From positions 457 to 64,456 of the forward strand of contig JAWODJ010000015.1 in assembly GCA_046483315.1 (NCBI GenBank): DNA of 64,000 nucleotides, in the 5' to 3' direction. Positions 5,580 through 38,164 of the stretch are shown piece by piece; positions within the stretch are counted from its first letter, which is position 1, and each line of letters begins with the position of its first letter. The position numbers and the translations under genes are program-made. Source of the stretch: Bacteroidales bacterium. Lineage in GTDB: Bacteria; Bacteroidota; Bacteroidia; Bacteroidales; PUMT01. The notes beneath the pieces were generated by a model that searched no databases, had not been told where the DNA came from, and worked only from the letters and a program-made list of their open reading frames with translations.

Positions 5580-6836
5580 TCATCGTTGCTGAGGAGAATC
5601 ATAAACAACCTCACCTTTAACTATTGTTTTTAATACATTCATTTCAAAGTTTTCAAGCGTAAAGAGAATCAAATCGGCCCTCATTCCGGGTTTTATTTCA
5701 CCCCTGTCGCTCATACCGTAAAAACGGGCAGGATTAGTGCTTGTCATTTGAATTGCAGTAGCAAGATCACAACCAGTAACCTTCATTACATGCCCAACCC
5801 CTTTTGAAAGAGGTGATGCCGAACCACTCAGGACATTCTGGGCGGGATAGATCACTGCACCCTCCCGTGTCAGCTGTATCGTATCTCCAATGGCATTCTG
5901 GTAATATCCCGGAGCCAGTCCGCCATAATGACTTACATCGGAAGTAATGATAATACGGTTTGATCCCTTGGTATTGTAAAACACTCTTATCTGCTCCGGC
6001 AGCAGATGAAATCCATCACAAATAATGCTAATCATCAGTCTGTCATCAGATAACTGAGGCCACAGCGGGTTCCTGTGACGATGAATGGTATTGGCCAAAC
6101 CATTTCCGAGATGAGTGGCTATCCGGGCTCCACGGTCAATTGCTTCTTTAATCTGATCAGAAGATCCGTCATGATGACCAAGTCCGATTTTAATTCCCAG
6201 CTCATTAACCCCGGAAATAAAATCCATGGCACCATCAACATCAGGAGCCACGGTAACCTGCATGATATTTCCCCCGGAAGCTTCGTAAAGCTCCAGAAAT
6301 TCATTCAAATCCGGCGGACGGACATGCTGCAGCGGATGGGCACCCCTGTAACCATCGACAGGTGAAATATATGGACCCTCCAGGTGAAATCCGGCTATAG
6401 ATCCCAGTGTTGATTCATCATCCCTGACTTCGGCCAGCAGTTTAAAGTTTTTCAGAAATATTTCGTGATCATTTGTTGTCAGGGTGGGCATATAAGTAGT
6501 CACCCCCTCTTTCCAGAAAGCTGAAGTAATATTATGTATACCTTCAGCACTCAGCTCACCGCCTGTATCGACAAAGGAAACTCCCTTGTAGCCGTTAACC
6601 TGATTATCAATCAGTCCGGGAGCAATGTATATCTCACCGGAGCCCTCCGGCAACTCATCCAGCCTGACTATGCCGGTGATCAGACCCTCCTCAAACTCTA
6701 TACGTACAGGAGTCTGATCCATATAAAAGAGGCCTTCAATGCTCTGCTGTGAATAGGACATATAACAATTCATTAAAAAAAAAGAAACAAGCAATAATCC
6801 AAAGAATCTCATATAAATTGTTTTTAAGATTTTCAT
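5580..6836 (-). CDS. nagA: N-acetylglucosamine-6-phosphate deacetylase family amidohydrolase (NagA-like)
   Basis: 418 aa. The blocks GFHLEGPYISPVDGYRGAHP and PGLIDNQVNGYKGVSF are typical NagA. The annotated start gives a signal-peptide-like N-terminus (MKILKTIYMRFFGLLLVSFFLMNCYMSYSQQ). An alternative start is Met39 (6722). Confidence 0.8.
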   Translation of the reverse strand: MKILKTIYMRFFGLLLVSFFLMNCYMSYSQQSIEGLFYMDQTPVRIEFEEGLITGIVRLDELPEGSGEIYIAPGLIDNQVNGYKGVSFVDTGGELSAEGIHNITSAFWKEGVTTYMPTLTTNDHEIFLKNFKLLAEVRDDESTLGSIAGFHLEGPYISPVDGYRGAHPLQHVRPPDLNEFLELYEASGGNIMQVTVAPDVDGAMDFISGVNELGIKIGLGHHDGSSDQIKEAIDRGARIATHLGNGLANTIHRHRNPLWPQLSDDRLMISIICDGFHLLPEQIRVFYNTKGSNRIIITSDVSHYGGLAPGYYQNAIGDTIQLTREGAVIYPAQNVLSGSASPLSKGVGHVMKVTGCDLATAIQMTSTNPARFYGMSDRGEIKPGMRADLILFTLENFEMNVLKTIVKGEVVYDSPQQR

Positions 6837-6915
6837 TATCCCTTAAATAGTTACCAGTATAAATCATTATTGGTTTTGAATAAAATACCGTTTAGGGGGG
6901 TAAAGGCTGCTGTAT

Positions 6916-8262
6916 TTATCCTTTTTGCGCAACAGGTTTTAAATCCGTTAAGTCTTCTATCCTGATAATTTTGCCATTTTCTATGCTTTCCCTCGCTGCT
7001 ATACCAATCAGAGCCGACATAGCCCCGTCACGTGACCCTGCCGATTGTTTAAAACGGTCTGTCGCATCCGGGTATCTGAAAAGCCGGTCTTTCAGCAACG
7101 GATCAGAACCTCCGTGTCCTCCGGTCTGCGGCATAACCTGAATTGTTTTAACATTTCCGAAAAGGTTGATTATCTTTATCTCCTCATGCGGCCTGGCCCC
7201 TCCGGGCATGGATTGCTGTATCCACGTATCAAGACGCCCCCTGGTCCCGTTGATGGCCAGGCGGTAACCTTCATAAGGGGAAAAAGCTGTTAATGAATAG
7301 TTTACCTTGACTCCGCTGGCATACCTGTACTGAACAGCCATAGTATCATAAATATCTATCTCCTTTCTGAAAACGCATCCATCACGCAGGTAACCATCAT
7401 ATTTCTCATTATCAACATACAAACGCATTAAAGAGGCGTTTTTTGTGATATCCCAATAAAAGTTACATTGGCTTTTAAACGGACAGGTACGGCAATGTGT
7501 GTGACTTATATCGCTGTTTTTCCTCCCATAGAAGTCCAGCGATCCATAAGCAAATACTTCCTCGGGTTCCGAATTCACCCAGTAATTCAACGCATCGAAA
7601 TGATGGGTTGCTTTATGCACGAGCAGGGTGCCCCCTATATCTCTTAATCCGTGCCACCTCCTGAAATAACTCGCTCCGTGATCAGTGTCGAGGTACCAGT
7701 TCAGATCAACCGATTTGATATCTCCAATCTCGCCAGACCTGAGTAATTCCCATATCTTCCGTACATAGTTCCTGTAACGCATGTTGAATGTCACCACTAC
7801 CTTATTACCCGTCCTCTTTTCCGCATCCAGGATCGCCTGACATTTTCTTTGATCGGTGGTCATCGGTTTTTCAGAAATCACTTTGATGCCGCTTTCCAGT
7901 CCCTTAATAATGAATTCATCATGCGTATTATCAGTTGTGACAACTATCAGAATATCAGGTTTTGTCTCTTTAAGCATCTTGTCAAAATCGGTGTAAACCG
8001 GACAGTCAACCTTCATTAATTCTTTGGCATATTTCAACCTTCCGGGATTAATGTCGCACAGACCAACAAATTCTATTACATCATCATATTCTGCTTTGAC
8101 AGATGTACCCCACATACCCGTGCCCCTTATTCCGGTGCCGACCATTGCAATTTTTTTTCTTTGCCCGGTTGTGAACCCAAAAGCCCCCGATGAAGTCATT
8201 ACCGCTCCTGCAGCTAATAAACCGGTTTTTTTAATGAATCTCCGGCGATCTACCTTTTCCAT
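6916..8262 (-). CDS. Gfo/Idh/MocA-family oxidoreductase with twin-arginine signal
   Basis: 448 aa. It has a DRRRFIKKTGLLAAGAV Tat-type signal followed by the Rossmann block KIAMVGTGIRG. Confidence 0.8.
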   Translation of the reverse strand: MEKVDRRRFIKKTGLLAAGAVMTSSGAFGFTTGQRKKIAMVGTGIRGTGMWGTSVKAEYDDVIEFVGLCDINPGRLKYAKELMKVDCPVYTDFDKMLKETKPDILIVVTTDNTHDEFIIKGLESGIKVISEKPMTTDQRKCQAILDAEKRTGNKVVVTFNMRYRNYVRKIWELLRSGEIGDIKSVDLNWYLDTDHGASYFRRWHGLRDIGGTLLVHKATHHFDALNYWVNSEPEEVFAYGSLDFYGRKNSDISHTHCRTCPFKSQCNFYWDITKNASLMRLYVDNEKYDGYLRDGCVFRKEIDIYDTMAVQYRYASGVKVNYSLTAFSPYEGYRLAINGTRGRLDTWIQQSMPGGARPHEEIKIINLFGNVKTIQVMPQTGGHGGSDPLLKDRLFRYPDATDRFKQSAGSRDGAMSALIGIAARESIENGKIIRIEDLTDLKPVAQKG

Positions 8263-8271
8263 AACCTTAAA

Positions 8272-9672
8272 TTAAATTAACTTAGTATTGCCACCTTTTT
8301 CCAGCATAATATCCATACCTGGCTTATTTGACTGCCATGATCCGGCTGTGAAATCGGGAACATTCACCGGCATGGAACGGTTGGCAACTGACCATTCACT
8401 CAGGGGTATGACCGAACTCCATAAAGCTGCATCATATACATTCATATCCAGTGGCAGTCCGTTGCGCAGACAATCTACCAGCCGCCAGTCCATTAAAGTG
8501 TCCATCCCGCCATGTCCTCCAACCTGACGGGCCATCCCGCCTACCCTTTTTGTTATTTCGGGGGTATATTGTTCCTCAAGAGCCTTAAACTCTTCATCCG
8601 AAACCCAGCCACGGTGACTGGTGGCAATTCTGGCGGGCAAAGGATATTTCCTGGCAATTCCCTTTGTTCCGCTGATAAGATGAATCCTTGAATATGGGCG
8701 TGGTGAACTGACATCATGCTGCACCATGATGGTCCTTCCTTTCCCGGTCCGGATTATGGTAGTATTCATGTTGCCACGGTAATCCCTGCCGACATATTCG
8801 TGCCAGAAATCATCTTCAGCAGCAAGCTCTTCGGCCCTCTTTCCCATCATAAAATCATTACTTGACACAGAAACCAGAAACTCCATTCTGTCGCCGAAAT
8901 TGATGTCCATTAACTGACATATCGGGCCCAATCCGTGCATAGGATACAAACTGCCATCTCTTTTGGAATTCTCCTCAAGCCTCCACATATTTGCATAGCC
9001 GGTTTTGGAAAAATTGTGTCCCATCAGATCGTGTATGTATGCTCCCTCTCCGTGAATCATCTCACCAAAGAACCCCTGCCTGGCCATATTGAGAGTCATC
9101 ATTTCAAAGAAATCATAGCATACATTTTCAAGCATGATACAATGTTTCCGGGTCCTTTCCGATGTCTCAACCAGCTGCCAGCACTCATCCATAGTCTGTG
9201 CTGCAGGAATTTCGGTAGCGGCATGTTTGTCGTTTTCCATGGCATAAACAGACATTGGAGCATGAAGATGCCAGGGAGTGCATATATATACGAGATCCAC
9301 ATCATCTCTCTCACAAAGTTTTTTCCACTCATTCTCTCCCCCTGAATATATTGCAGGGTCATGGCCATGATCCCTTACAAACTCGCGTGCACGGTTTACC
9401 CGGGACGGATCGAGATCAGACAGGGCAGTTATTTTAACATCACCTATATGTACATGACGCCTGAGTGCCCCGTATCCGCGGCTGCCCACTCCTATAAGCC
9501 CTATGCGGACGGTATCAATTTTCGGAGCTGCATAACCGGCCATGTTAAATCTTTGGTTATGCGTTAACCTGAAAGGCGCTTTATCATCTGCAATTCCTGT
9601 AAATCCGGCACCGGCCATGCCAACCCCGGCCAGACCTGTCAGTTTAATAAAATCTCTGCGACTGGTTTTCAT
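8272..9672 (-). CDS. GH109-like NAD-dependent glycosidase / Gfo-Idh-MocA oxidoreductase with Tat signal
   Basis: 466 aa with an SRRDFIKLTGLAG Tat signal. The blocks MLENVCYDFFEMMTLNMARQGFFGE, LYPMHGLGPICQLMDIN, GGHGGMD and VPDFTAGSW parallel the Elizabethkingia GH109 alpha-N-acetylgalactosaminidase as I recall it. Confidence 0.75.
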   Translation of the reverse strand: MKTSRRDFIKLTGLAGVGMAGAGFTGIADDKAPFRLTHNQRFNMAGYAAPKIDTVRIGLIGVGSRGYGALRRHVHIGDVKITALSDLDPSRVNRAREFVRDHGHDPAIYSGGENEWKKLCERDDVDLVYICTPWHLHAPMSVYAMENDKHAATEIPAAQTMDECWQLVETSERTRKHCIMLENVCYDFFEMMTLNMARQGFFGEMIHGEGAYIHDLMGHNFSKTGYANMWRLEENSKRDGSLYPMHGLGPICQLMDINFGDRMEFLVSVSSNDFMMGKRAEELAAEDDFWHEYVGRDYRGNMNTTIIRTGKGRTIMVQHDVSSPRPYSRIHLISGTKGIARKYPLPARIATSHRGWVSDEEFKALEEQYTPEITKRVGGMARQVGGHGGMDTLMDWRLVDCLRNGLPLDMNVYDAALWSSVIPLSEWSVANRSMPVNVPDFTAGSWQSNKPGMDIMLEKGGNTKLI

Positions 9673-32383: not shown

Positions 32384-33652
32384 TTACTCCAGCTCTTTTG
32401 TAATGGCAATGGCCGCTATTGTTCCATCTGCAACCGCAGTGGTGATCTGGCGGTATTTCTTGCTGTTGATATCGCCAACCGAATAGACACCCTCAATGCT
32501 TGTCTGCATATCCTCATTGGCTTTAATATAGCCCCACCGATCCACTTCCAGCTTATCACTGATCATTGAAAGGTTGGGTATCAGCCCTATAAAAACAAAA
32601 ATGCCATCGGTAACAAGAACTTTGCGCTTACCTGTTTTAAGCTCCTCGACCTCCACTTCCATCTTATCTCCTTTCCGGGCGAATGAACGAGGCTCATGTT
32701 CAAAAAGAAAAGAAATTTTGGGATCAGCAAGAGCTTTTTCCTGTGCCTCTTTATTTGCCTGTAATTTATCAAACTGGTGTACCAATGTGATCTTAGAGGC
32801 AAATTTGGAAATAAAGGCCGACTCTTCAATAGCTGAATTACCACCGCCAATTACAATAACCTCCTTGTTATCGAAATATTTGGCATCGCATGTTGCACAA
32901 TAGGAGATACCGCTTCCCATGAATTCCTGCTCACCCGGAATATTCAGCTTCCGGGGCGAGGTGCCTGTTGCAATAACTATCCTTTTTGCCCTTATCGTTT
33001 CATAATCATCTATCATGATCTCTTTTCTTATAAGGTCAACCCTGGTAACATCAACGGCCACCTTATAGATGGTCCCGCATCTTTTTGTCTGTTCCGACAT
33101 GTTGTGCGACAACATATATCCAGGCTGAGGCTCAATAAATCCGGGATAATTCGACACCATGTGGGTAGTTGCCACGTATCCGCCGGGAAGGGCGACATCA
33201 ATAAGGGTTGTATCAATTTTTGCCTGGCACAGGTACAATCCCGCCGTCAGTCCCCCGGGACCAGCTCCCAGTATCGCCACTTCAGTGTCCGTAATAACTG
33301 GTTTCACTCCCTCCATGATACTGTCTGTCTTCTCCTTCCCTGCCAGATGGCGGATCTCCCTAACTATTTCCGAACGTTTAATGCCACCTGAGAGCCTCTG
33401 GCAAACCTCCCGGCCATCTTCATAAAAAAGAAGGGTAGGCGACGACCTTACTCCCAGCTTTTCGGCAAGCTCCCTGTTTCCCTGCCTGAATACCTTAACA
33501 AAGGTCAGCTCGTTTCCGAACAGTTGCTCCAGGCTCTCAAGCTTTGGTGCGAGAGCATCGCAGGGTGGGCATTCCGTAGAATAAAAATCTACCAGCACCG
33601 GTCCACGGCCACTGATAACATCATTGAATTCATTTGCAGTAATCTCTTGCAT
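32384..33652 (-). CDS. thioredoxin / thioredoxin-reductase fusion protein (N-terminal Trx, C-terminal low-Mr TrxR)
   Basis: 422 aa. The Trx fold has VLVDFYSTECPPCDALAP. The TrxR half has the FAD motif ILGAGPGGLTAG, the redox dithiol YCATCDA and a second dinucleotide motif VIGGGNSAIEE followed by HQFDKLQA. Confidence 0.85.
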   Translation of the reverse strand: MQEITANEFNDVISGRGPVLVDFYSTECPPCDALAPKLESLEQLFGNELTFVKVFRQGNRELAEKLGVRSSPTLLFYEDGREVCQRLSGGIKRSEIVREIRHLAGKEKTDSIMEGVKPVITDTEVAILGAGPGGLTAGLYLCQAKIDTTLIDVALPGGYVATTHMVSNYPGFIEPQPGYMLSHNMSEQTKRCGTIYKVAVDVTRVDLIRKEIMIDDYETIRAKRIVIATGTSPRKLNIPGEQEFMGSGISYCATCDAKYFDNKEVIVIGGGNSAIEESAFISKFASKITLVHQFDKLQANKEAQEKALADPKISFLFEHEPRSFARKGDKMEVEVEELKTGKRKVLVTDGIFVFIGLIPNLSMISDKLEVDRWGYIKANEDMQTSIEGVYSVGDINSKKYRQITTAVADGTIAAIAITKELE

Positions 33653-33748: not shown

Positions 33749-35062
33749 CTATTTATTTACCTTATCCGGGAAATAAGCAGCAATCCCCAGCTCCAGCAGC
33801 TCTTTTACCGGCCTGCAATCCGGACTGTGTCTGCTTCCGTTCCGGTTCTTTGAAACGGCCGCACAGCCTCCGCCGCAAAGCAAATTCAGGTTACAGTTAC
33901 TGCACTCACTTATTGAAAGTATATCCCGGTCATTCCACTCCTCTATCTTCTCTTCATACATCACCCTTTCGGGGAAAAATCTCCCAAGCTCCTCTCCCTT
34001 CTTCCCTGCGGTTGCAGTGCATGCATAAATACTGCCTGTATAGTCGAAAGCCCATTCCGTTTTTGTGCCGGGACAGGCATCAAAGAGTGGTGCGGGCAGT
34101 TCACCGGTTTCATACAGTGCCCTGGATACAGAAAAGGATGGTTTGTGAAACTCAAGAATGTGAGGATACTCTTTCATTAACCTGTAAAGTTCAGTATACA
34201 TCTCAATACGCGAAAATAGCCTGCCTCTTTTTACCTGGCAATCATGCAGCTCATAATTCCTTCCAAGTTGTGTACTGAACAGCGGTGATCCGGTCCATCC
34301 CCTGTCAATGGAGAAACGCGCCAGTGCGGGTATATTGTCAATGTTTTCCCTGTCTGCCACAACCCTTAGATTGACCGGGATATTATTCTCCAGCAACAGG
34401 TCCACCCCTTCTGTAATCCTGTCAAAGGTACCTTCACCGCTTTTCAGGGTACGACGGCGGTTATGAACATCACGGGTTCCGTCAAGAGTGACCTGGATTT
34501 CCCTGATTTGTGCCTGCCTGAACAGGCCGATATACTCAGAAAGGTGATATCCGTTGGTAACAACTGCGATACCGGTTTTCATCTCATTTGCACGTTCAAT
34601 GATGTAACCTACGGTGTTCATATGGCTTCTGCCGGGAAGCAGGGGTTCGCCCCCGAAAAGGGTTATATACCTGCGCCGGTTGACAAATTCCGTTTCGATA
34701 TGTTTGAAAAAGGCATCAATAACCTCCTTATCAAGTCCGGCTCCTTTAACATCGTAATCGCCCTGGTAACAATAAGAGCAGTTAAAATTGCAACTGTAGG
34801 TGGGAACAAAAAACAGCTGAACCTCATCTGTTTCCCTCTCATCCAGGAACTGAAGGTAGGCTTTTCTGAACAGGGACTTTTCAGCTTCGGGATCAACAAT
34901 GTATCCACGTCCGGCAAGGTCAGGATGGTTCAGGTTTCCTTCCTGCATGCCCTGCCAGGTATTCCTGTCAATAATATCGGCACTTCCGTAAAGGGAGTTA
35001 AGGATAAAGTACTCATCCGAATCTCTTATCTCTGAGATAATATTAAACCTGGATAATTCCAT
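33749..35062 (-). CDS. radical SAM / SPASM-domain enzyme, peptide-maturase-like
   Basis: 437 aa. The CxxxCxxC motif is in PTYSCNFNCSYCYQ, about 90 residues from the N-terminus. The full SPASM pattern is present: C-x12-G-x4-C (CPGTKTEWAFDYTGSIYAC), then CSNCNLNLLCGGGC (C-x2-C-x5-C-x3-C), then a distal Cys (SPDC). Confidence 0.85.
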   Translation of the reverse strand: MELSRFNIISEIRDSDEYFILNSLYGSADIIDRNTWQGMQEGNLNHPDLAGRGYIVDPEAEKSLFRKAYLQFLDERETDEVQLFFVPTYSCNFNCSYCYQGDYDVKGAGLDKEVIDAFFKHIETEFVNRRRYITLFGGEPLLPGRSHMNTVGYIIERANEMKTGIAVVTNGYHLSEYIGLFRQAQIREIQVTLDGTRDVHNRRRTLKSGEGTFDRITEGVDLLLENNIPVNLRVVADRENIDNIPALARFSIDRGWTGSPLFSTQLGRNYELHDCQVKRGRLFSRIEMYTELYRLMKEYPHILEFHKPSFSVSRALYETGELPAPLFDACPGTKTEWAFDYTGSIYACTATAGKKGEELGRFFPERVMYEEKIEEWNDRDILSISECSNCNLNLLCGGGCAAVSKNRNGSRHSPDCRPVKELLELGIAAYFPDKVNK

Positions 35063-35063
35063 G

Positions 35064-35075
35064 CTTTCGCGAAAG
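35064..35075. promoter_or_regulatory. perfect 12-bp palindrome CTTTCGCGAAAG abutting the radical SAM start codon
   Basis: Read directly from the sequence. It is separated by 1 nt from the ATG at 35062..35060. Confidence 0.3.
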
Positions 35076-35225
35076 GATATGAACGGGGACTTTTATCCGG
35101 GGAATGACAATTTTACTCTTTTACTTACGGACGTTTATGCCGGTAACCCGGGTTTATCCAAAAAGTTATAACAACCTTGCAGTGTCCACTTCCCGGTATT
35201 TAACTGACTAATCCGGTTTTATTTC

Positions 35226-35324
35226 TCAGTCATGACACCCGGCCACGATCTTTGATTTCTTTGCACAGCATTGTGCCTGCACAGACTTCCTCTCTTCTGT
35301 ATTCTTTGTAGTCAGACTCTTCAT
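35226..35324 (-). CDS. candidate precursor peptide (32 aa, 3 Cys)
   Basis: Below the ORF-track size cut-off. Hand translation gives MKSLTTKNTEERKSVQAQCCAKKSKIVAGCHD followed by a stop. It is co-directional with, and 163 nt upstream of, the radical SAM gene and is preceded by a TAnnTTTG box. Confidence 0.35.
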   Translation of the reverse strand: MKSLTTKNTEERKSVQAQCCAKKSKIVAGCHD

Positions 35325-35369
35325 CGTAAATATTTTAAACTGTATTCAACTTATAGCTTTTATTATCTG

Positions 35370-35377
35370 CAAAGATA
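35370..35377 (-). promoter_or_regulatory. Bacteroidota -7 promoter box TATCTTTG
   Basis: Exact TAnnTTTG match on the minus strand, 46 nt upstream of the small-ORF ATG (35324). Confidence 0.35.
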
Positions 35378-35471
35378 TAAAATAAATATCAATATATCTG
35401 TAAAGGTATCTCCCCCTTTATTCATCACCCGGCAACCCGACAGGCTTCTTTGGACAGGCACGTTTCGAAAA

Positions 35472-35503
35472 GAAAAAAACAGATAAAAAGCCGGTAGCCG
35501 GCT
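35472..35503 (-). terminator. intrinsic terminator of the TonB-dependent receptor gene
   Basis: On the minus strand, AGCCGG-CTA-CCGGCT is followed by TTTTATCTGTTTTTTT, located 23 nt after the stop at 35526. Confidence 0.6.
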
Positions 35504-35525
35504 GCTGTTTTCCAGGGCGGGAAAT

Positions 35526-37751
35526 CTAAAAATTTCCGGTAAGGCGCATGCTGAAATTACGGTGAGGCCTTATATCACCCGGGCGGCCCATATATTCGGT
35601 ATTGAGAACGTTCTTTACCACCATTGACATCCTTAGTTTTTCATTTATGGCATAACCAATGTGCGGGTCAACCAGAAGATGCCCCCTGACGGATTCATTC
35701 CAGTAATCATAAAAACCGGGGAGGATCGTTTCCCTGGTAAGTTCATTCAGAAAAACATCATCGATATTCAGTATTGGTGAACCGGCCTGCAGACTGAACC
35801 CAAAATCATATCTCCCGTATTCACTTCCCAGGCTAAGTGTAACCGAATGCTTGCGCCTGTATTTAAGGTATACATCGCCTCCTGCAGCAGTTCGGGAGTT
35901 AACCTCCACAGGGTATATGAATACATATCCGCCGGTGACTGTATTGTTGAACCTGCCCGCCGGGCCGGACAGGGCAAATTCAATTTCTGTACCATACACC
36001 CTCGAATGCTCAACATTGGTGGCCATGAATCTGGGAGGGAAGTAAAAAAGATACTCAATCATATCTTTATTACGCGAGTGAAACACGGCAATATCAAGCT
36101 GCCCGTTCAGCCGTCCGGTTAGTATCCCCTGCTTGATTCCCAGTTCAGAGCTCCAGCCTGATTCGGGGCGGATATCCGGGTTCGGAACTATTCGCACCGA
36201 ACCCATGGTTGTTGCTGCATGTTTTTCAGCAATGGAGGGATAACGGTATCCCTGTCCGAAAGATGCCCTTAAAAAAGTGTAATCCAGCAACCTGTAATTT
36301 ACTCCTGCCCGGAAAAGAGGAACAAGCCTGTCCCACAGCCCGTCAAGTGTATTATGCTCAATCCGTATACCGGCAACCACCTTCAGTCTTTCGACAGGAG
36401 CAATTTCAGCCTGGGTATAGCCAGCAAGGTTAAAAGCATGATGATCACCGTACAGGGCCGAGTATATACGGCTGTAGTTTTCCATTATACCGAGATTAAT
36501 ATCAACCAGCCGTGACAAAGTGTACCTAAACTGATACTCTGCCAGAAAAGAGAGTGCACGGCTGTCGTTTTGCCCCGCTTCGGGAAACCTGTTTCCTGAA
36601 GATTGAAGCCTTGTCCTCAGGTCATGCATGTAACGGGTTCCACTTTTCATGCTGATGTATGGATCAATAGTAATAAGGCTTCCGTTTAACTTATTTGCAG
36701 TGGACTCATCCTGCTTCAAAGCACCTGACCAGGCATTCTCCCACAATATGAAATCTCTCTTCCCGGTGATACCGGCATTCATGCTAACACCGTATGAAAG
36801 ACCTTCAAACCGTTCATCATCATGCTTAAGACTCAAATTGAGCCTGCCCAGTTTCTCATCGTTAAGTTTCCTGTAGCCATTGTCATTAAGAAGATGAAGG
36901 GCAACACTCATACCTGTGTTACCGTATCTTTGCATATGAGAAAAAGATGCACTCTGCCAGGTTCTTGGTGAATCCCACCATACCCATTCCCCCCGGCCCG
37001 GCCGGCCAAAAACTCCTGCCTCTGAAAAAAATCTTGTAACAGGCTCACTGCCTGCTTCTGCAGTCCTGAAATTAATTACACCATTGAGGGCGGAAGATCC
37101 GTACAAAACCGATGATGCACCTTTTATAATCTCTATCTGCGAGATATTCTCAAGAGGAAGGAACTGCCATTTTATATTTCCGGCGTCAGCCGATAAAACC
37201 GGCAATCCGTCAATAAGGGCAATAACCCTGCTTCCCGCACCGTAACTGAAGCCACTCCCTCCCCTTACAGAAGCCTGTCCGTCCAGCACTTCTATTCCGG
37301 GTGTTTTATTAATCAGTTCGGTTGGGTCAGTGATATGAGAGGAGGAAATCATTCCCGGCTTTATAATGTTTACCGAGACCGTAAGTTCAGAAACTCTTTG
37401 TTCAACCTTACCCGCACTTATTACAATCTGGTCTATCTCCGCAGCATCATATTCGAGTCCCACATCCAGAATAACAGTATCGCCCGGCGGCACATGGACC
37501 GTACGTGTTACTGAGGCATACCCCACATACCTGAATGTGATACTTATTCTCCCGGTGCTGGTATTTGCCGTATAAAACCCCGTCCTGTCAGTTACAGTAC
37601 CCTGACCCTTCCCGTAAAGAACACTGGCTGAAGGTAAAGGCTCCATCGTTTGCCGGTCAAAAACCCTTCCCTTAACAATACCCTGGCCATAGGAGGTCTT
37701 ACAGGCAAGAAACGAAAAAAGAAAAAGGACCGCAAGCAGCCGGTTGATCAT
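35526..37751 (-). CDS. TonB-dependent receptor with CarboxypepD_reg N-terminal domain
   Basis: 741 aa. It has a signal peptide, IVKGRVFDRQTMEPLPSASV (carboxypeptidase-regulatory-like), a plug, a long beta-barrel and a terminal aromatic residue (..RLTGNF). Confidence 0.85.
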   Translation of the reverse strand: MINRLLAVLFLFSFLACKTSYGQGIVKGRVFDRQTMEPLPSASVLYGKGQGTVTDRTGFYTANTSTGRISITFRYVGYASVTRTVHVPPGDTVILDVGLEYDAAEIDQIVISAGKVEQRVSELTVSVNIIKPGMISSSHITDPTELINKTPGIEVLDGQASVRGGSGFSYGAGSRVIALIDGLPVLSADAGNIKWQFLPLENISQIEIIKGASSVLYGSSALNGVINFRTAEAGSEPVTRFFSEAGVFGRPGRGEWVWWDSPRTWQSASFSHMQRYGNTGMSVALHLLNDNGYRKLNDEKLGRLNLSLKHDDERFEGLSYGVSMNAGITGKRDFILWENAWSGALKQDESTANKLNGSLITIDPYISMKSGTRYMHDLRTRLQSSGNRFPEAGQNDSRALSFLAEYQFRYTLSRLVDINLGIMENYSRIYSALYGDHHAFNLAGYTQAEIAPVERLKVVAGIRIEHNTLDGLWDRLVPLFRAGVNYRLLDYTFLRASFGQGYRYPSIAEKHAATTMGSVRIVPNPDIRPESGWSSELGIKQGILTGRLNGQLDIAVFHSRNKDMIEYLFYFPPRFMATNVEHSRVYGTEIEFALSGPAGRFNNTVTGGYVFIYPVEVNSRTAAGGDVYLKYRRKHSVTLSLGSEYGRYDFGFSLQAGSPILNIDDVFLNELTRETILPGFYDYWNESVRGHLLVDPHIGYAINEKLRMSMVVKNVLNTEYMGRPGDIRPHRNFSMRLTGNF

Positions 37752-38164
37752 TTTGCTTTGAATGTCATCCGGATATTAAATTCTTCCTCAGGATTAAGGG
37801 GATTTGGAAAATCAGTTGTGATCTTCAGTGAAGAAGATGTCAGTTCAGCAATTTTAGTTGTAAGTGGAAAATCCAGGGCATCTGTAATAATAACAAGCTC
37901 CGTCTCTTCCTTTTCAAATCTCCATGTACCGGTATAATCACCGAAATAACCGGTACCATCGGCATTGAACTTCACATCACCGTTGAAATCACCCAGCAGT
38001 TCCCCTGATCCACTGGCATCAGAACCGTTAACAAGCAAACTGTCTGATACCCAAACAGGCGTTGTCAGCATGTCAAATCTTGCAGATACCTCATCTTCAT
38101 CCTTATCACACGATACAATGATAAGGGCAGACAAAAACACTATAAACAAGCCCAGTTGCTTCAT
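37748..38164 (-). CDS. small lipocalin-like lipoprotein
   Basis: 138 aa with the lipobox LIIVSC. It overlaps the TonB receptor start by 4 bp (ATGA). Its composition is beta-rich. Confidence 0.55.
   Translation of the reverse strand: MKQLGLFIVFLSALIIVSCDKDEDEVSARFDMLTTPVWVSDSLLVNGSDASGSGELLGDFNGDVKFNADGTGYFGDYTGTWRFEKEETELVIITDALDFPLTTKIAELTSSSLKITTDFPNPLNPEEEFNIRMTFKAK

Follow-up and report, generated by a model that had tools for sequence, protein, structure and literature searches.

A conserved cysteine-containing mini-gene beside a CteB-like radical SAM/SPASM enzyme, and the probable role of its product as the enzyme's substrate

The window analyzed here is a stretch of 64,000 nucleotides (nt) from a Bacteroidales bacterium (assembly GCA_046483315.1, contig JAWODJ010000015.1, positions 457 to 64,456 of the forward strand), and our subject is an open reading frame (ORF) of only 32 codons on its minus strand, together with the radical S-adenosylmethionine (SAM) enzyme gene that follows it. 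This mini-ORF is a real gene under selection, it is linked to an enzyme of CteB-like radical SAM/SPASM architecture, and both belong to a constant four-gene set. The usual order of this cassette is a short ArsM-like methyltransferase, the peptide, the radical SAM enzyme and a thioredoxin–thioredoxin reductase (Trx-TrxR). We consider it likely that the peptide is the dedicated substrate of the enzyme, which would modify it as the precursor of a ribosomally produced, post-translationally modified peptide (RiPP). A first-pass annotation of the window had reported a 32-amino acid ORF with a CC...C core, and the ORF is indeed present on the minus strand at the coordinates it gave (Table 1). The two halves are also composed as it described, with an N-terminal half rich in Lys, Thr and Glu and a core-like C-terminal half, CCAKKSKIVAGCHD, and the distance of 163 nt that it measured to the radical SAM gene is exact.

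The peptide gene and its conservation

Relatives of the enzyme with 53–77% identity were collected from 80 loci (the enzyme-seeded set), which come from metagenome-assembled genomes (MAGs) and one isolate and carry Bacteroidales, Cyclobacteriaceae, Ignavibacteriales, Spirochaetales/Leptospirales, Deltaproteobacteria and Syntrophomonadaceae labels. The same mini-ORF is located just upstream of the enzyme in 76 of the 80 loci, and its hosts span Bacteroidota, Ignavibacteriota, Spirochaetota, a delta-proteobacterial MAG and a Bacillota MAG. Of the four loci that lack it, three offer fewer than 260 nt upstream, and the fourth (L071) has a different context. The expression used to find the mini-ORF fixed only the Q, the three Cys and the stop. 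In the 77 sequences compared the final 16 codons spell A-Q-C-C-A-K-x-S-K-x-V-A-G-C-H-D-stop, 11 of the residues being invariant, and the mean entropy of the core is 0.24, 0.31 and 1.37 bits at codon positions 1, 2 and 3, respectively. Pairwise comparison of 153 distinct core DNAs, among which the fixed residues are free of bias only in the enzyme-seeded half, gives a nonsynonymous divergence (pN) of 0.126 against a synonymous divergence (pS) of 0.89, which is saturated, and a pN/pS of 0.14. Because the frame and the protein are conserved while third codon positions are near-random, the mini-ORF is a real gene under purifying selection. The first-pass annotation had named loss of the reading frame in relatives as the finding that would speak against the gene; the frame is kept, so this refutation clearly fails.

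The N-terminal of the peptide is conserved as well (M-K-S-L-[IVT]-K-K-K). The remainder of the leader is 30% lysine and usually 15–16 residues long, and an extra CC or CxC pair is found in the leader of 27 of the 153 peptides. The earlier division into a leader and a core is thus supported by an M-K-S-L-[IVT]-K-K motif and a 16-residue core that are kept under purifying selection. Two loci, L047 from a Syntrophomonadaceae MAG and L085 from an Ignavibacteriales MAG, encode an identical peptide including its GTG start, and their enzymes are sisters with 100/100 support; this identity reflects either a recent transfer between phyla or a binning error.

The length of the ORF alone is not beyond chance, as 135 ORFs of at least 25 amino acids are found within 12 kb of the window. 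A degenerate DNA pattern for the core has a single match in the window, compared with 0 expected matches from 100 shuffles, and a single match in the whole genome, so the peptide gene is single-copy. The search for paralogous mini-ORFs elsewhere in the genome, which the first-pass annotation had suggested, returned none, either by a scan with the core pattern or in the surroundings of the other radical SAM genes. The latter are anSME-like genes, MoaA and one SPASM gene, none of them with a Cys mini-ORF. A phage origin was rejected since the core motif has 0 matches in viral contigs. Five peptide variants do not match any Pfam or NCBIfam model even at E 10, and an Rfam scan of positions 34500–36000 gave only a chance match to a plastid intron fragment (E 0.26). 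The peptide is usually overlooked by gene callers; a collection of 15 billion proteins lacks six of ten variants, and elsewhere the peptide is called "hypothetical protein".

In the 14 loci checked outside Bacteroidia, which belong to phyla with Shine-Dalgarno usage and three of which have GTG starts, a Shine-Dalgarno site (GGAGG, AGGAG or GGAG) is always located 5–9 nt before the ATG or GTG. The peptide is probably co-transcribed with the methyltransferase in most loci, because its gene follows that of the methyltransferase closely. In the window, a terminator-like hairpin would close the unit of the methyltransferase, a 138-amino acid protein (p138) and a TonB-dependent receptor ahead of the peptide promoter region (Table 1). 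Downstream of it lies TAtcTTTG, a putative Bacteroidetes-type -7 box that may serve, in this clade only, as the own promoter of the unit of peptide, radical SAM enzyme and Trx-TrxR. The Bacteroides promoter consensus is TAnnTTTG, and the close relatives L006, L008, L009 and L010 also have such a box upstream of their peptide gene. A sigma-70 promoter scan found nothing, as expected for Bacteroidota.

In 128 loci the enzyme start follows the peptide stop after a gap of 2 to 1075 nt (median 72 nt). In 23 of them the gap is shorter than 15 nt and does not contain any hairpin. Where the gap is at least 40 nt (100 loci), the first ~70 nt after the stop fold with a mean z of -3.15, and 62% of them lie below -2, as compared with mononucleotide shuffles; many of these hairpins look like intrinsic terminators. 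A terminator-like hairpin after a precursor gene is the usual means by which precursor transcripts outnumber those of the enzyme. The spacer of the window does not show an exceptional fold (z 0.23 over its full length against dinucleotide shuffles, z -1.4 for its first 76 nt), and the strong hairpin is missing from the whole clade of the window. The suggestion of the first-pass annotation that the spacer could allow a differential stoichiometry is thus supported only in part; it suits the family, with its terminator-like hairpin after the stop, better than this locus.

Such a hairpin in most loci, together with the very short length of an ORF that gene callers usually miss, is also what could be expected if the ORF were a regulatory leader, such as a Cys-sensing attenuator, or a chance ORF, in either case with a product that does not have a function of its own. 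We give this explanation hardly any credence. Attenuators conserve their regulatory codons, whereas here a sequence of 16 residues is kept in which A, Q, A, K, S, G, H and D are invariant, and the protein is fixed although its synonymous sites have reached saturation. Moreover, the hairpin follows the stop and does not have an alternative pairing with the ORF, the shortest spacers lack it, and the spacer of the window itself is without significant structure.

Linkage to the enzyme and the proposed modification

Peptide and enzyme were found to occur together. Among 400 evenly sampled genomes of the phylum the core pattern is present in 3 and a reversed control pattern in 0, and an enzyme search at E <= 1e-80 finds the orthologue in the same 3 genomes, adjoining the peptide, while 397 have neither. 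The cassette is rare, being present in about 1% of the sampled genomes. A second set was seeded with the peptide in a metagenome scan, in which at least 120 stretches matched and 80 loci were used; together with the enzyme-seeded set it makes up the 160 loci discussed below. Among the matches listed, the enzyme is downstream of the peptide and on the same strand in 32 of the 37 loci with at least 1.7 kb of downstream sequence and elsewhere in the neighbourhood in 2 more, the methyltransferase is upstream of the peptide in 51 of 58 loci, and Trx-TrxR is present in 19 of 24. This strict co-occurrence with a CteB-like radical SAM/SPASM enzyme agrees with the earlier claim that the ORF holds the position of a precursor gene beside its maturase.

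The enzyme is a 437-amino acid protein with Pfam matches to Radical_SAM (E 2e-19) and Fer4_12. The cysteines of its CX3CX2C motif (C91, C95 and C98) are invariant in 62 family sequences, as are seven SPASM cysteines (C330, C348, C387, C390, C396, C400 and C416), and C275 is at least 90% conserved. These SPASM cysteines align with those of CteB, and seven is also the count for CteB and QhpD (PMC10352776). The closest sequence match of the enzyme is CteB (5WGG/5WHY, E 1e-13). Its AlphaFold (AF2) model has a mean predicted local distance difference test (pLDDT) score of 91 and a predicted template-modelling (pTM) score of 0.89. When this model is compared in Foldseek, the top matches are again CteB 5WHY/5WGG, with a TM of about 0.7 over the full length (456–473 columns), followed by anSME, SuiB, ChlB, SkfB and PqqE. 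Residues 1–80 are modelled at a pLDDT of about 95 as strands 7–11, 18–22 and 27–31 and then helices 33–40, 47–51 and 58–78, which is the predicted layout of a winged-helix, PqqD-like RiPP-recognition element (RRE). Public records label this enzyme family merely "radical SAM protein", and since gene callers miss the peptide in most genomes it looks like an orphan radical SAM protein.

Based on this architecture, a possible course of the modification can be suggested. The N-terminal RRE-like domain would bind the M-K-S-L-[IVT]-K-K leader, and the radical SAM cluster would make a 5'-deoxyadenosyl radical that leads to hydrogen abstraction from the core. One of the core cysteines would occupy the open site of auxiliary cluster I, as in CteB, and could then form one or more intramolecular thioether cross-links of the sacti- or ranthipeptide type to a nearby carbon, with the invariant C-terminal C-H-D as the most obvious site. 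This thioether detail is tentative, and we place in it roughly half the confidence that we place in the role of the peptide as a substrate. The product probably stays in the cell, because neither a protease nor an exporter travels with the peptide, and it may work with the ArsM-like methyltransferase and the AhpF-like Trx-TrxR disulfide reductase.

Several points weigh against this interpretation. Both the role of the peptide as a substrate and the chemistry are proposed from sequence and from predicted structure. About half of the 153 core DNAs were picked by the core pattern, so that the invariance among them is partly by construction. The anSME enzymes, which oxidize Cys to formylglycine, are almost as close to the model structurally as CteB is. 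In addition, the enzyme falls below every NCBIfam equivalog cut-off, for CefB (NF038107, 155.1 vs 600), TIGR04463 (133.7 vs 525), PapB (NF047865, 108.3 vs 340) and the SCIFF maturase (TIGR03974, 79.7 vs 425), and as all the cut-offs of peptide maturases are missed the chemistry is not transferable by homology. Two loci, L112 and L162, keep the methyltransferase and the peptide and have no enzyme in the available flank, and in a high-GC clade the order is permuted, so that the enzyme lies either upstream or on the opposite strand; because of these cases the peptide is tied to the whole cassette and not to the enzyme alone. Finally, the -7 box is not enriched family-wide (8 of 60 loci, 13%, compared with a 9% background), and a general claim of an own promoter for the peptide family was therefore dropped.

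The permuted high-GC clade (L118, L132, L134, L140, L146, L166 and others) has peptides of the form MK[LM]LTKP..CCAPEK.AQCCAKASRLVSGCHD with a second CC pair, and its Trx and TrxR are encoded by separate genes. In L112 (8693–13095), the methyltransferase–peptide pair is followed not by the radical SAM enzyme but by DUF1847 and four further genes. Judged by eye from their sequences, the latter presumably encode a second methyltransferase, a protein with a CxxCH heme-binding motif that may be a multiheme cytochrome, and what could be a cytochrome b and a YeeE-like membrane protein. In the enzyme tree, sequences from Spirochaetota, Ignavibacteriota, a Myxococcota-labelled MAG and a Bacillota MAG nest among those of Bacteroidota, with 8 changes of phylum label compared with a minimum of 4; this nesting would fit some lateral transfer or mis-binning.

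Cassette partners, neighbourhood and possible function

The methyltransferase, usually the first gene of the cassette, is directly upstream of the peptide in 68 of the 80 enzyme-seeded loci. Its closest solved structures are ArsM 5EVJ and 4FR0, and it misses the cut-off of the NCBIfam arsenite methyltransferase model NF008823 (180.9 vs 263). Its C17, C18, C21, C36, C109 and C159 are conserved in 63–64 of 64 homologues. C21 aligns with Cys72 of CmArsM and the motifs SNCV and ECWAGA with those of Cys174 and Cys224, so that both the cysteines at the metalloid-ligand positions of ArsM and an N-terminal CC are kept, and most homologues end in a CC(C)(C) tail. In Trx-TrxR, which is present in 74 of the 80 enzyme-seeded loci, an N-terminal thioredoxin (CPPC) precedes a thioredoxin-reductase-like flavoprotein, which is the domain order of AhpF; it scores 304.9 bits with NCBIfam TRX_reduct, under the cut-off of 343, and matches AhpF homologues too. 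In the window, an insertion of p138 and the TonB-dependent receptor separates the methyltransferase from the peptide, and NCBIfam gives for the receptor only generic matches to heme, B12 and siderophore receptors. Among the 160 loci this insertion is limited to the clade of the window (L006–L012) and the metagenome locus L160. In the enzyme tree the clade forms a monophyletic group whose sister, L026, shows the plain order, so the insertion is derived.

Table 1. Positions of the peptide gene, its signals and the cassette genes in the window, with examples of a zinc-ribbon protein from other loci.
Feature	Position	Strand	Basis or remark
Peptide gene, 32 amino acids	35226..35324	minus	Translation; ATG 35324-35322, TGA 35228-35226; product MKSLTTKNTEERKSVQAQCCAKKSKIVAGCHD
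Leader-like part of the peptide, MKSLTTKNTEERKSVQ	35324..35277	minus	Translation
Core of the peptide, AQCCAKKSKIVAGCHD	35276..35229	minus	Translation
Spacer from peptide stop to radical SAM start, 163 nt	35063..35225	minus	ORF coordinates
Putative Bacteroidetes-type -7 box, TAtcTTTG	35370..35377	minus	Read from sequence; 46 nt before the ATG
Terminator-like hairpin and T-run	35489..35503	minus	6-bp stem with 5 G-C pairs, then TTTTATCTGT
Radical SAM/SPASM enzyme, 437 amino acids, CteB-like, predicted N-terminal RRE-like domain	33749..35062	minus	Pfam, NCBIfam, AF2, Foldseek
Trx-TrxR fusion, third gene of the unit	32384..33652	minus	Pfam Thioredoxin and Pyr_redox_2
Insertion between methyltransferase and peptide	35526..38164	minus	138-amino acid predicted lipoprotein and TonB-dependent receptor
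Predicted lipoprotein of 138 amino acids (p138)	37748..38164	minus	Part of the insertion
TonB-dependent receptor	35526..37751	minus	Pfam Plug, TonB_dep_Rec_b-barrel, CarboxypepD_reg
Short ArsM-like SAM methyltransferase, 207 amino acids	38242..38865	minus	NCBIfam arsenite methyltransferase (NF008823), 180.9 bits
144-amino acid zinc-ribbon protein (examples)	L084 1494-1928; L057 1118-1552; L162 11914-12348	minus	

A canonical arsR-arsC-arsM-acr3 operon is located on another contig of the same genome. Its full-length ArsM scores 311.6 bits, above the cut-off, and shares 27–39% identity with the cassette methyltransferase, which is therefore a second, divergent paralogue. Near the cassette, neither ArsC nor Acr3 was found in any of the 160 loci, and an ArsR-type regulator was found in 3. 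A role in classical arsenic detoxification was rejected on account of the separate operon and of the lack of arsC and acr3 near the 160 cassettes. The operon itself, seen at L087 (G000:C30:21000-29292) 5755–8291, encodes an ArsR/SmtB protein, a thioredoxin-type ArsC, ArsM and an Acr3 that is cut by the contig end. In L079 (220–507, plus strand), one of the three loci with such a regulator, an ArsR/SmtB-type protein that ends in CVNNCNC lies just upstream of the methyltransferase.

Frequent neighbours in the 160 loci are thioredoxins with a signal peptide (55), DUF6132 (37), DUF1847 (22), rhodanese (11) and an SQR-like flavoprotein (9), together with a probable DUF302 protein in 18 loci, which was assigned by reading its sequence. 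DUF6132 is a small membrane protein with a C-x4-C motif. In extended islands (L056, L066, L025, L142, L164 and others) DUF1847, one to three signal-peptide thioredoxins and DUF6132 lie upstream of the methyltransferase, and genes for rhodanese, the SQR-like flavoprotein and the presumed DUF302 protein are found nearby. A 144-amino acid protein with an IS1595-type transposase zinc-ribbon, found upstream of the methyltransferase in 19 of the 160 loci and encoded on the opposite strand, may be a regulator or the remnant of a mobile element. The methyltransferase and reductase partners, the extra CC or CxC pairs of the leader and the sulfur and thiol neighbours point to thiol, sulfur or metalloid chemistry as the setting in which the peptide may act.

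One alternative explanation, which we consider unlikely, is that the peptide is not a classical RiPP and chiefly serves the ArsM-like methyltransferase as a small carrier of soft metalloids or thiols. Its CC and third Cys would then bind As(III) or a similar species (Sb, Se, Te or persulfide) and hand it to the methyltransferase, Trx-TrxR would re-reduce the peptide, and the radical SAM enzyme would just stabilize the peptide or act on the element that it carries. The ArsD chaperone binds As(III) through Cys12, Cys13 and Cys18, and the turnover of ArsM in vitro uses Trx/TrxR. The conserved metalloid-type cysteines and the N-terminal CC of the methyltransferase, its cysteine tail, the extra pairs in the leaders, the frequent thiol and sulfur neighbours (DUF6132, secreted thioredoxins, rhodanese, SQR-like, DUF1847) and the two loci that retain methyltransferase and peptide and have no enzyme in their flank would all suit such a carrier. 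However, the scarcity of ars genes around the cassette, with a complete ars operon elsewhere in the genome, argues against it, and when the insertion split off the methyltransferase in the clade of the window the peptide stayed with the enzyme. In addition, a simple chaperone would not require the non-Cys residues of the core to be nearly invariant, and the strict co-occurrence with a SPASM enzyme that has a predicted RRE implies that the peptide is modified.

Another hypothesis, which we regard as distinctly improbable, is that the peptide carries or becomes an organo-metalloid or an unusual thiol cofactor. Here the Cys triad would hold As(III), Se or Te and the radical SAM enzyme would form a carbon–metalloid or carbon–sulfur bond on the peptide, followed by methylation of the bound element by the ArsM-like enzyme and recycling of the thiols by the AhpF-like Trx-TrxR. 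ArsS and ArsL, which add carbon radicals to arsenic, offer an analogy. If true, the peptide would be the first RiPP to contain a metalloid, or the cassette would provide anaerobes without glutathione with a low-molecular-weight thiol system derived from a peptide.

Since a radical SAM/SPASM enzyme beside a Cys peptide is also the layout of sactipeptides and ranthipeptides, the peptide might be the precursor of a secreted antimicrobial or signalling RiPP, similar to a bacteriocin, for which the TonB receptor of this clade would serve in uptake or immunity. The presence of that receptor and of a lipoprotein within the cassette, and the frequency of secreted thioredoxins nearby, would agree with this idea, which we nevertheless hold to be very unlikely. 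The recurrent neighbour clusters of the 160 loci do not include a leader protease or an ABC or MFS exporter, and the peptide does not have a Gly-Gly or other cleavage motif. The core is nearly invariant over at least five phyla, which sets it apart from fast-evolving bacteriocins, each genome has a single copy, and the TonB insertion is restricted to one derived clade. The near-invariance of the non-Cys core residues, a gene present only once and a locus with neither protease nor exporter argue instead for an intracellular, precisely shaped product, either cofactor-like or a carrier, and not an antibiotic.

Significance and comparison with known systems

The cassette is not described by any Pfam, NCBIfam or Rfam model or by any paper in the literature searched, and the Bacteroidales RiPP-mining paper PMC10352776 treats a different cluster. 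If the peptide is indeed the substrate of the enzyme, the cassette represents an uncharacterized and uncurated family of radical-SAM-modified peptides in hundreds of anaerobes from sediments, springs and wetlands, across at least five phyla, with a core as conserved as that of a cofactor precursor. No RiPP class is known to have its set of partners, a metalloid-type methyltransferase and a dedicated disulfide reductase. Once the peptide is added the system can be tested directly, with Carboxylicivirga caseinilyticus A049 (L075) as a cultured carrier, and it could reveal new Cys chemistry or a RiPP link to the metabolism of arsenic, selenium or sulfur in anoxic habitats.

The system closest to it in the way it works is SCIFF, the ranthipeptide of Clostridia (CteA/ScfA with CteB/ScfB, TIGR03974), in which a short conserved Cys peptide is paired with a SPASM enzyme. 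Both have a wide taxonomic range, an N-terminal RRE-like domain (predicted here), seven SPASM cysteines and a locus without a protease or exporter. The differences are that the enzyme here lies far under the SCIFF cut-off, with about 18% identity, that the hosts are Bacteroidota, Ignavibacteriota, Spirochaetota and others, and that the peptide has three Cys (CC...C) and ends in C-H-D in place of a six-Cys tail. SCIFF loci are not known to include an ArsM-like methyltransferase or Trx-TrxR as parts.

In PapA/PapB and QhpC/QhpD the sulfur of Cys is joined to side-chain carbons of Asp or Glu, and the enzyme here is likewise of the SPASM type and matches PapB with 108 bits. By analogy, a Cys-to-Asp thioether at the invariant Cys-His-Asp would be chemically plausible. 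Yet the PapB score is under its cut-off, there is neither a repeated motif nor the context of a QhpC-type dehydrogenase subunit, and the spacing is Cys-x-Asp, whereas PapA has Cys-x3-Asp repeats. The maturases of CefA/CefB (NF038107) and TIGR04463, whose substrates are Cys peptides, are the top NCBIfam matches of the enzyme (155 and 134 bits); these scores are far under the cut-offs of 600 and 525, and the peptide does not show a Cys at every fifth position.

Among arsenic proteins, ArsM with Trx/TrxR resembles the cassette in that its methyltransferase keeps the As(III)-binding cysteines and has a dedicated Trx-TrxR alongside, but the cassette methyltransferase is a short paralogue under the cut-off and is never beside arsC or acr3. 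The CC and the distal C of the peptide resemble the Cys12-Cys13-Cys18 site of ArsD, with no detectable homology to ArsD.

A last comparison can be made with PqqA/PqqE and MftA/MftC. The cassette differs from them in that recurrent peptidases, tailoring enzymes and linked dehydrogenases are lacking and in that the core is based on Cys and not on Glu/Tyr or Val-Tyr. It is like them in its tiny precursor with an invariant C-terminal core, its SPASM enzyme with a predicted RRE, a product that is probably intracellular, a gene that occurs once per genome and redox partners encoded in the operon.

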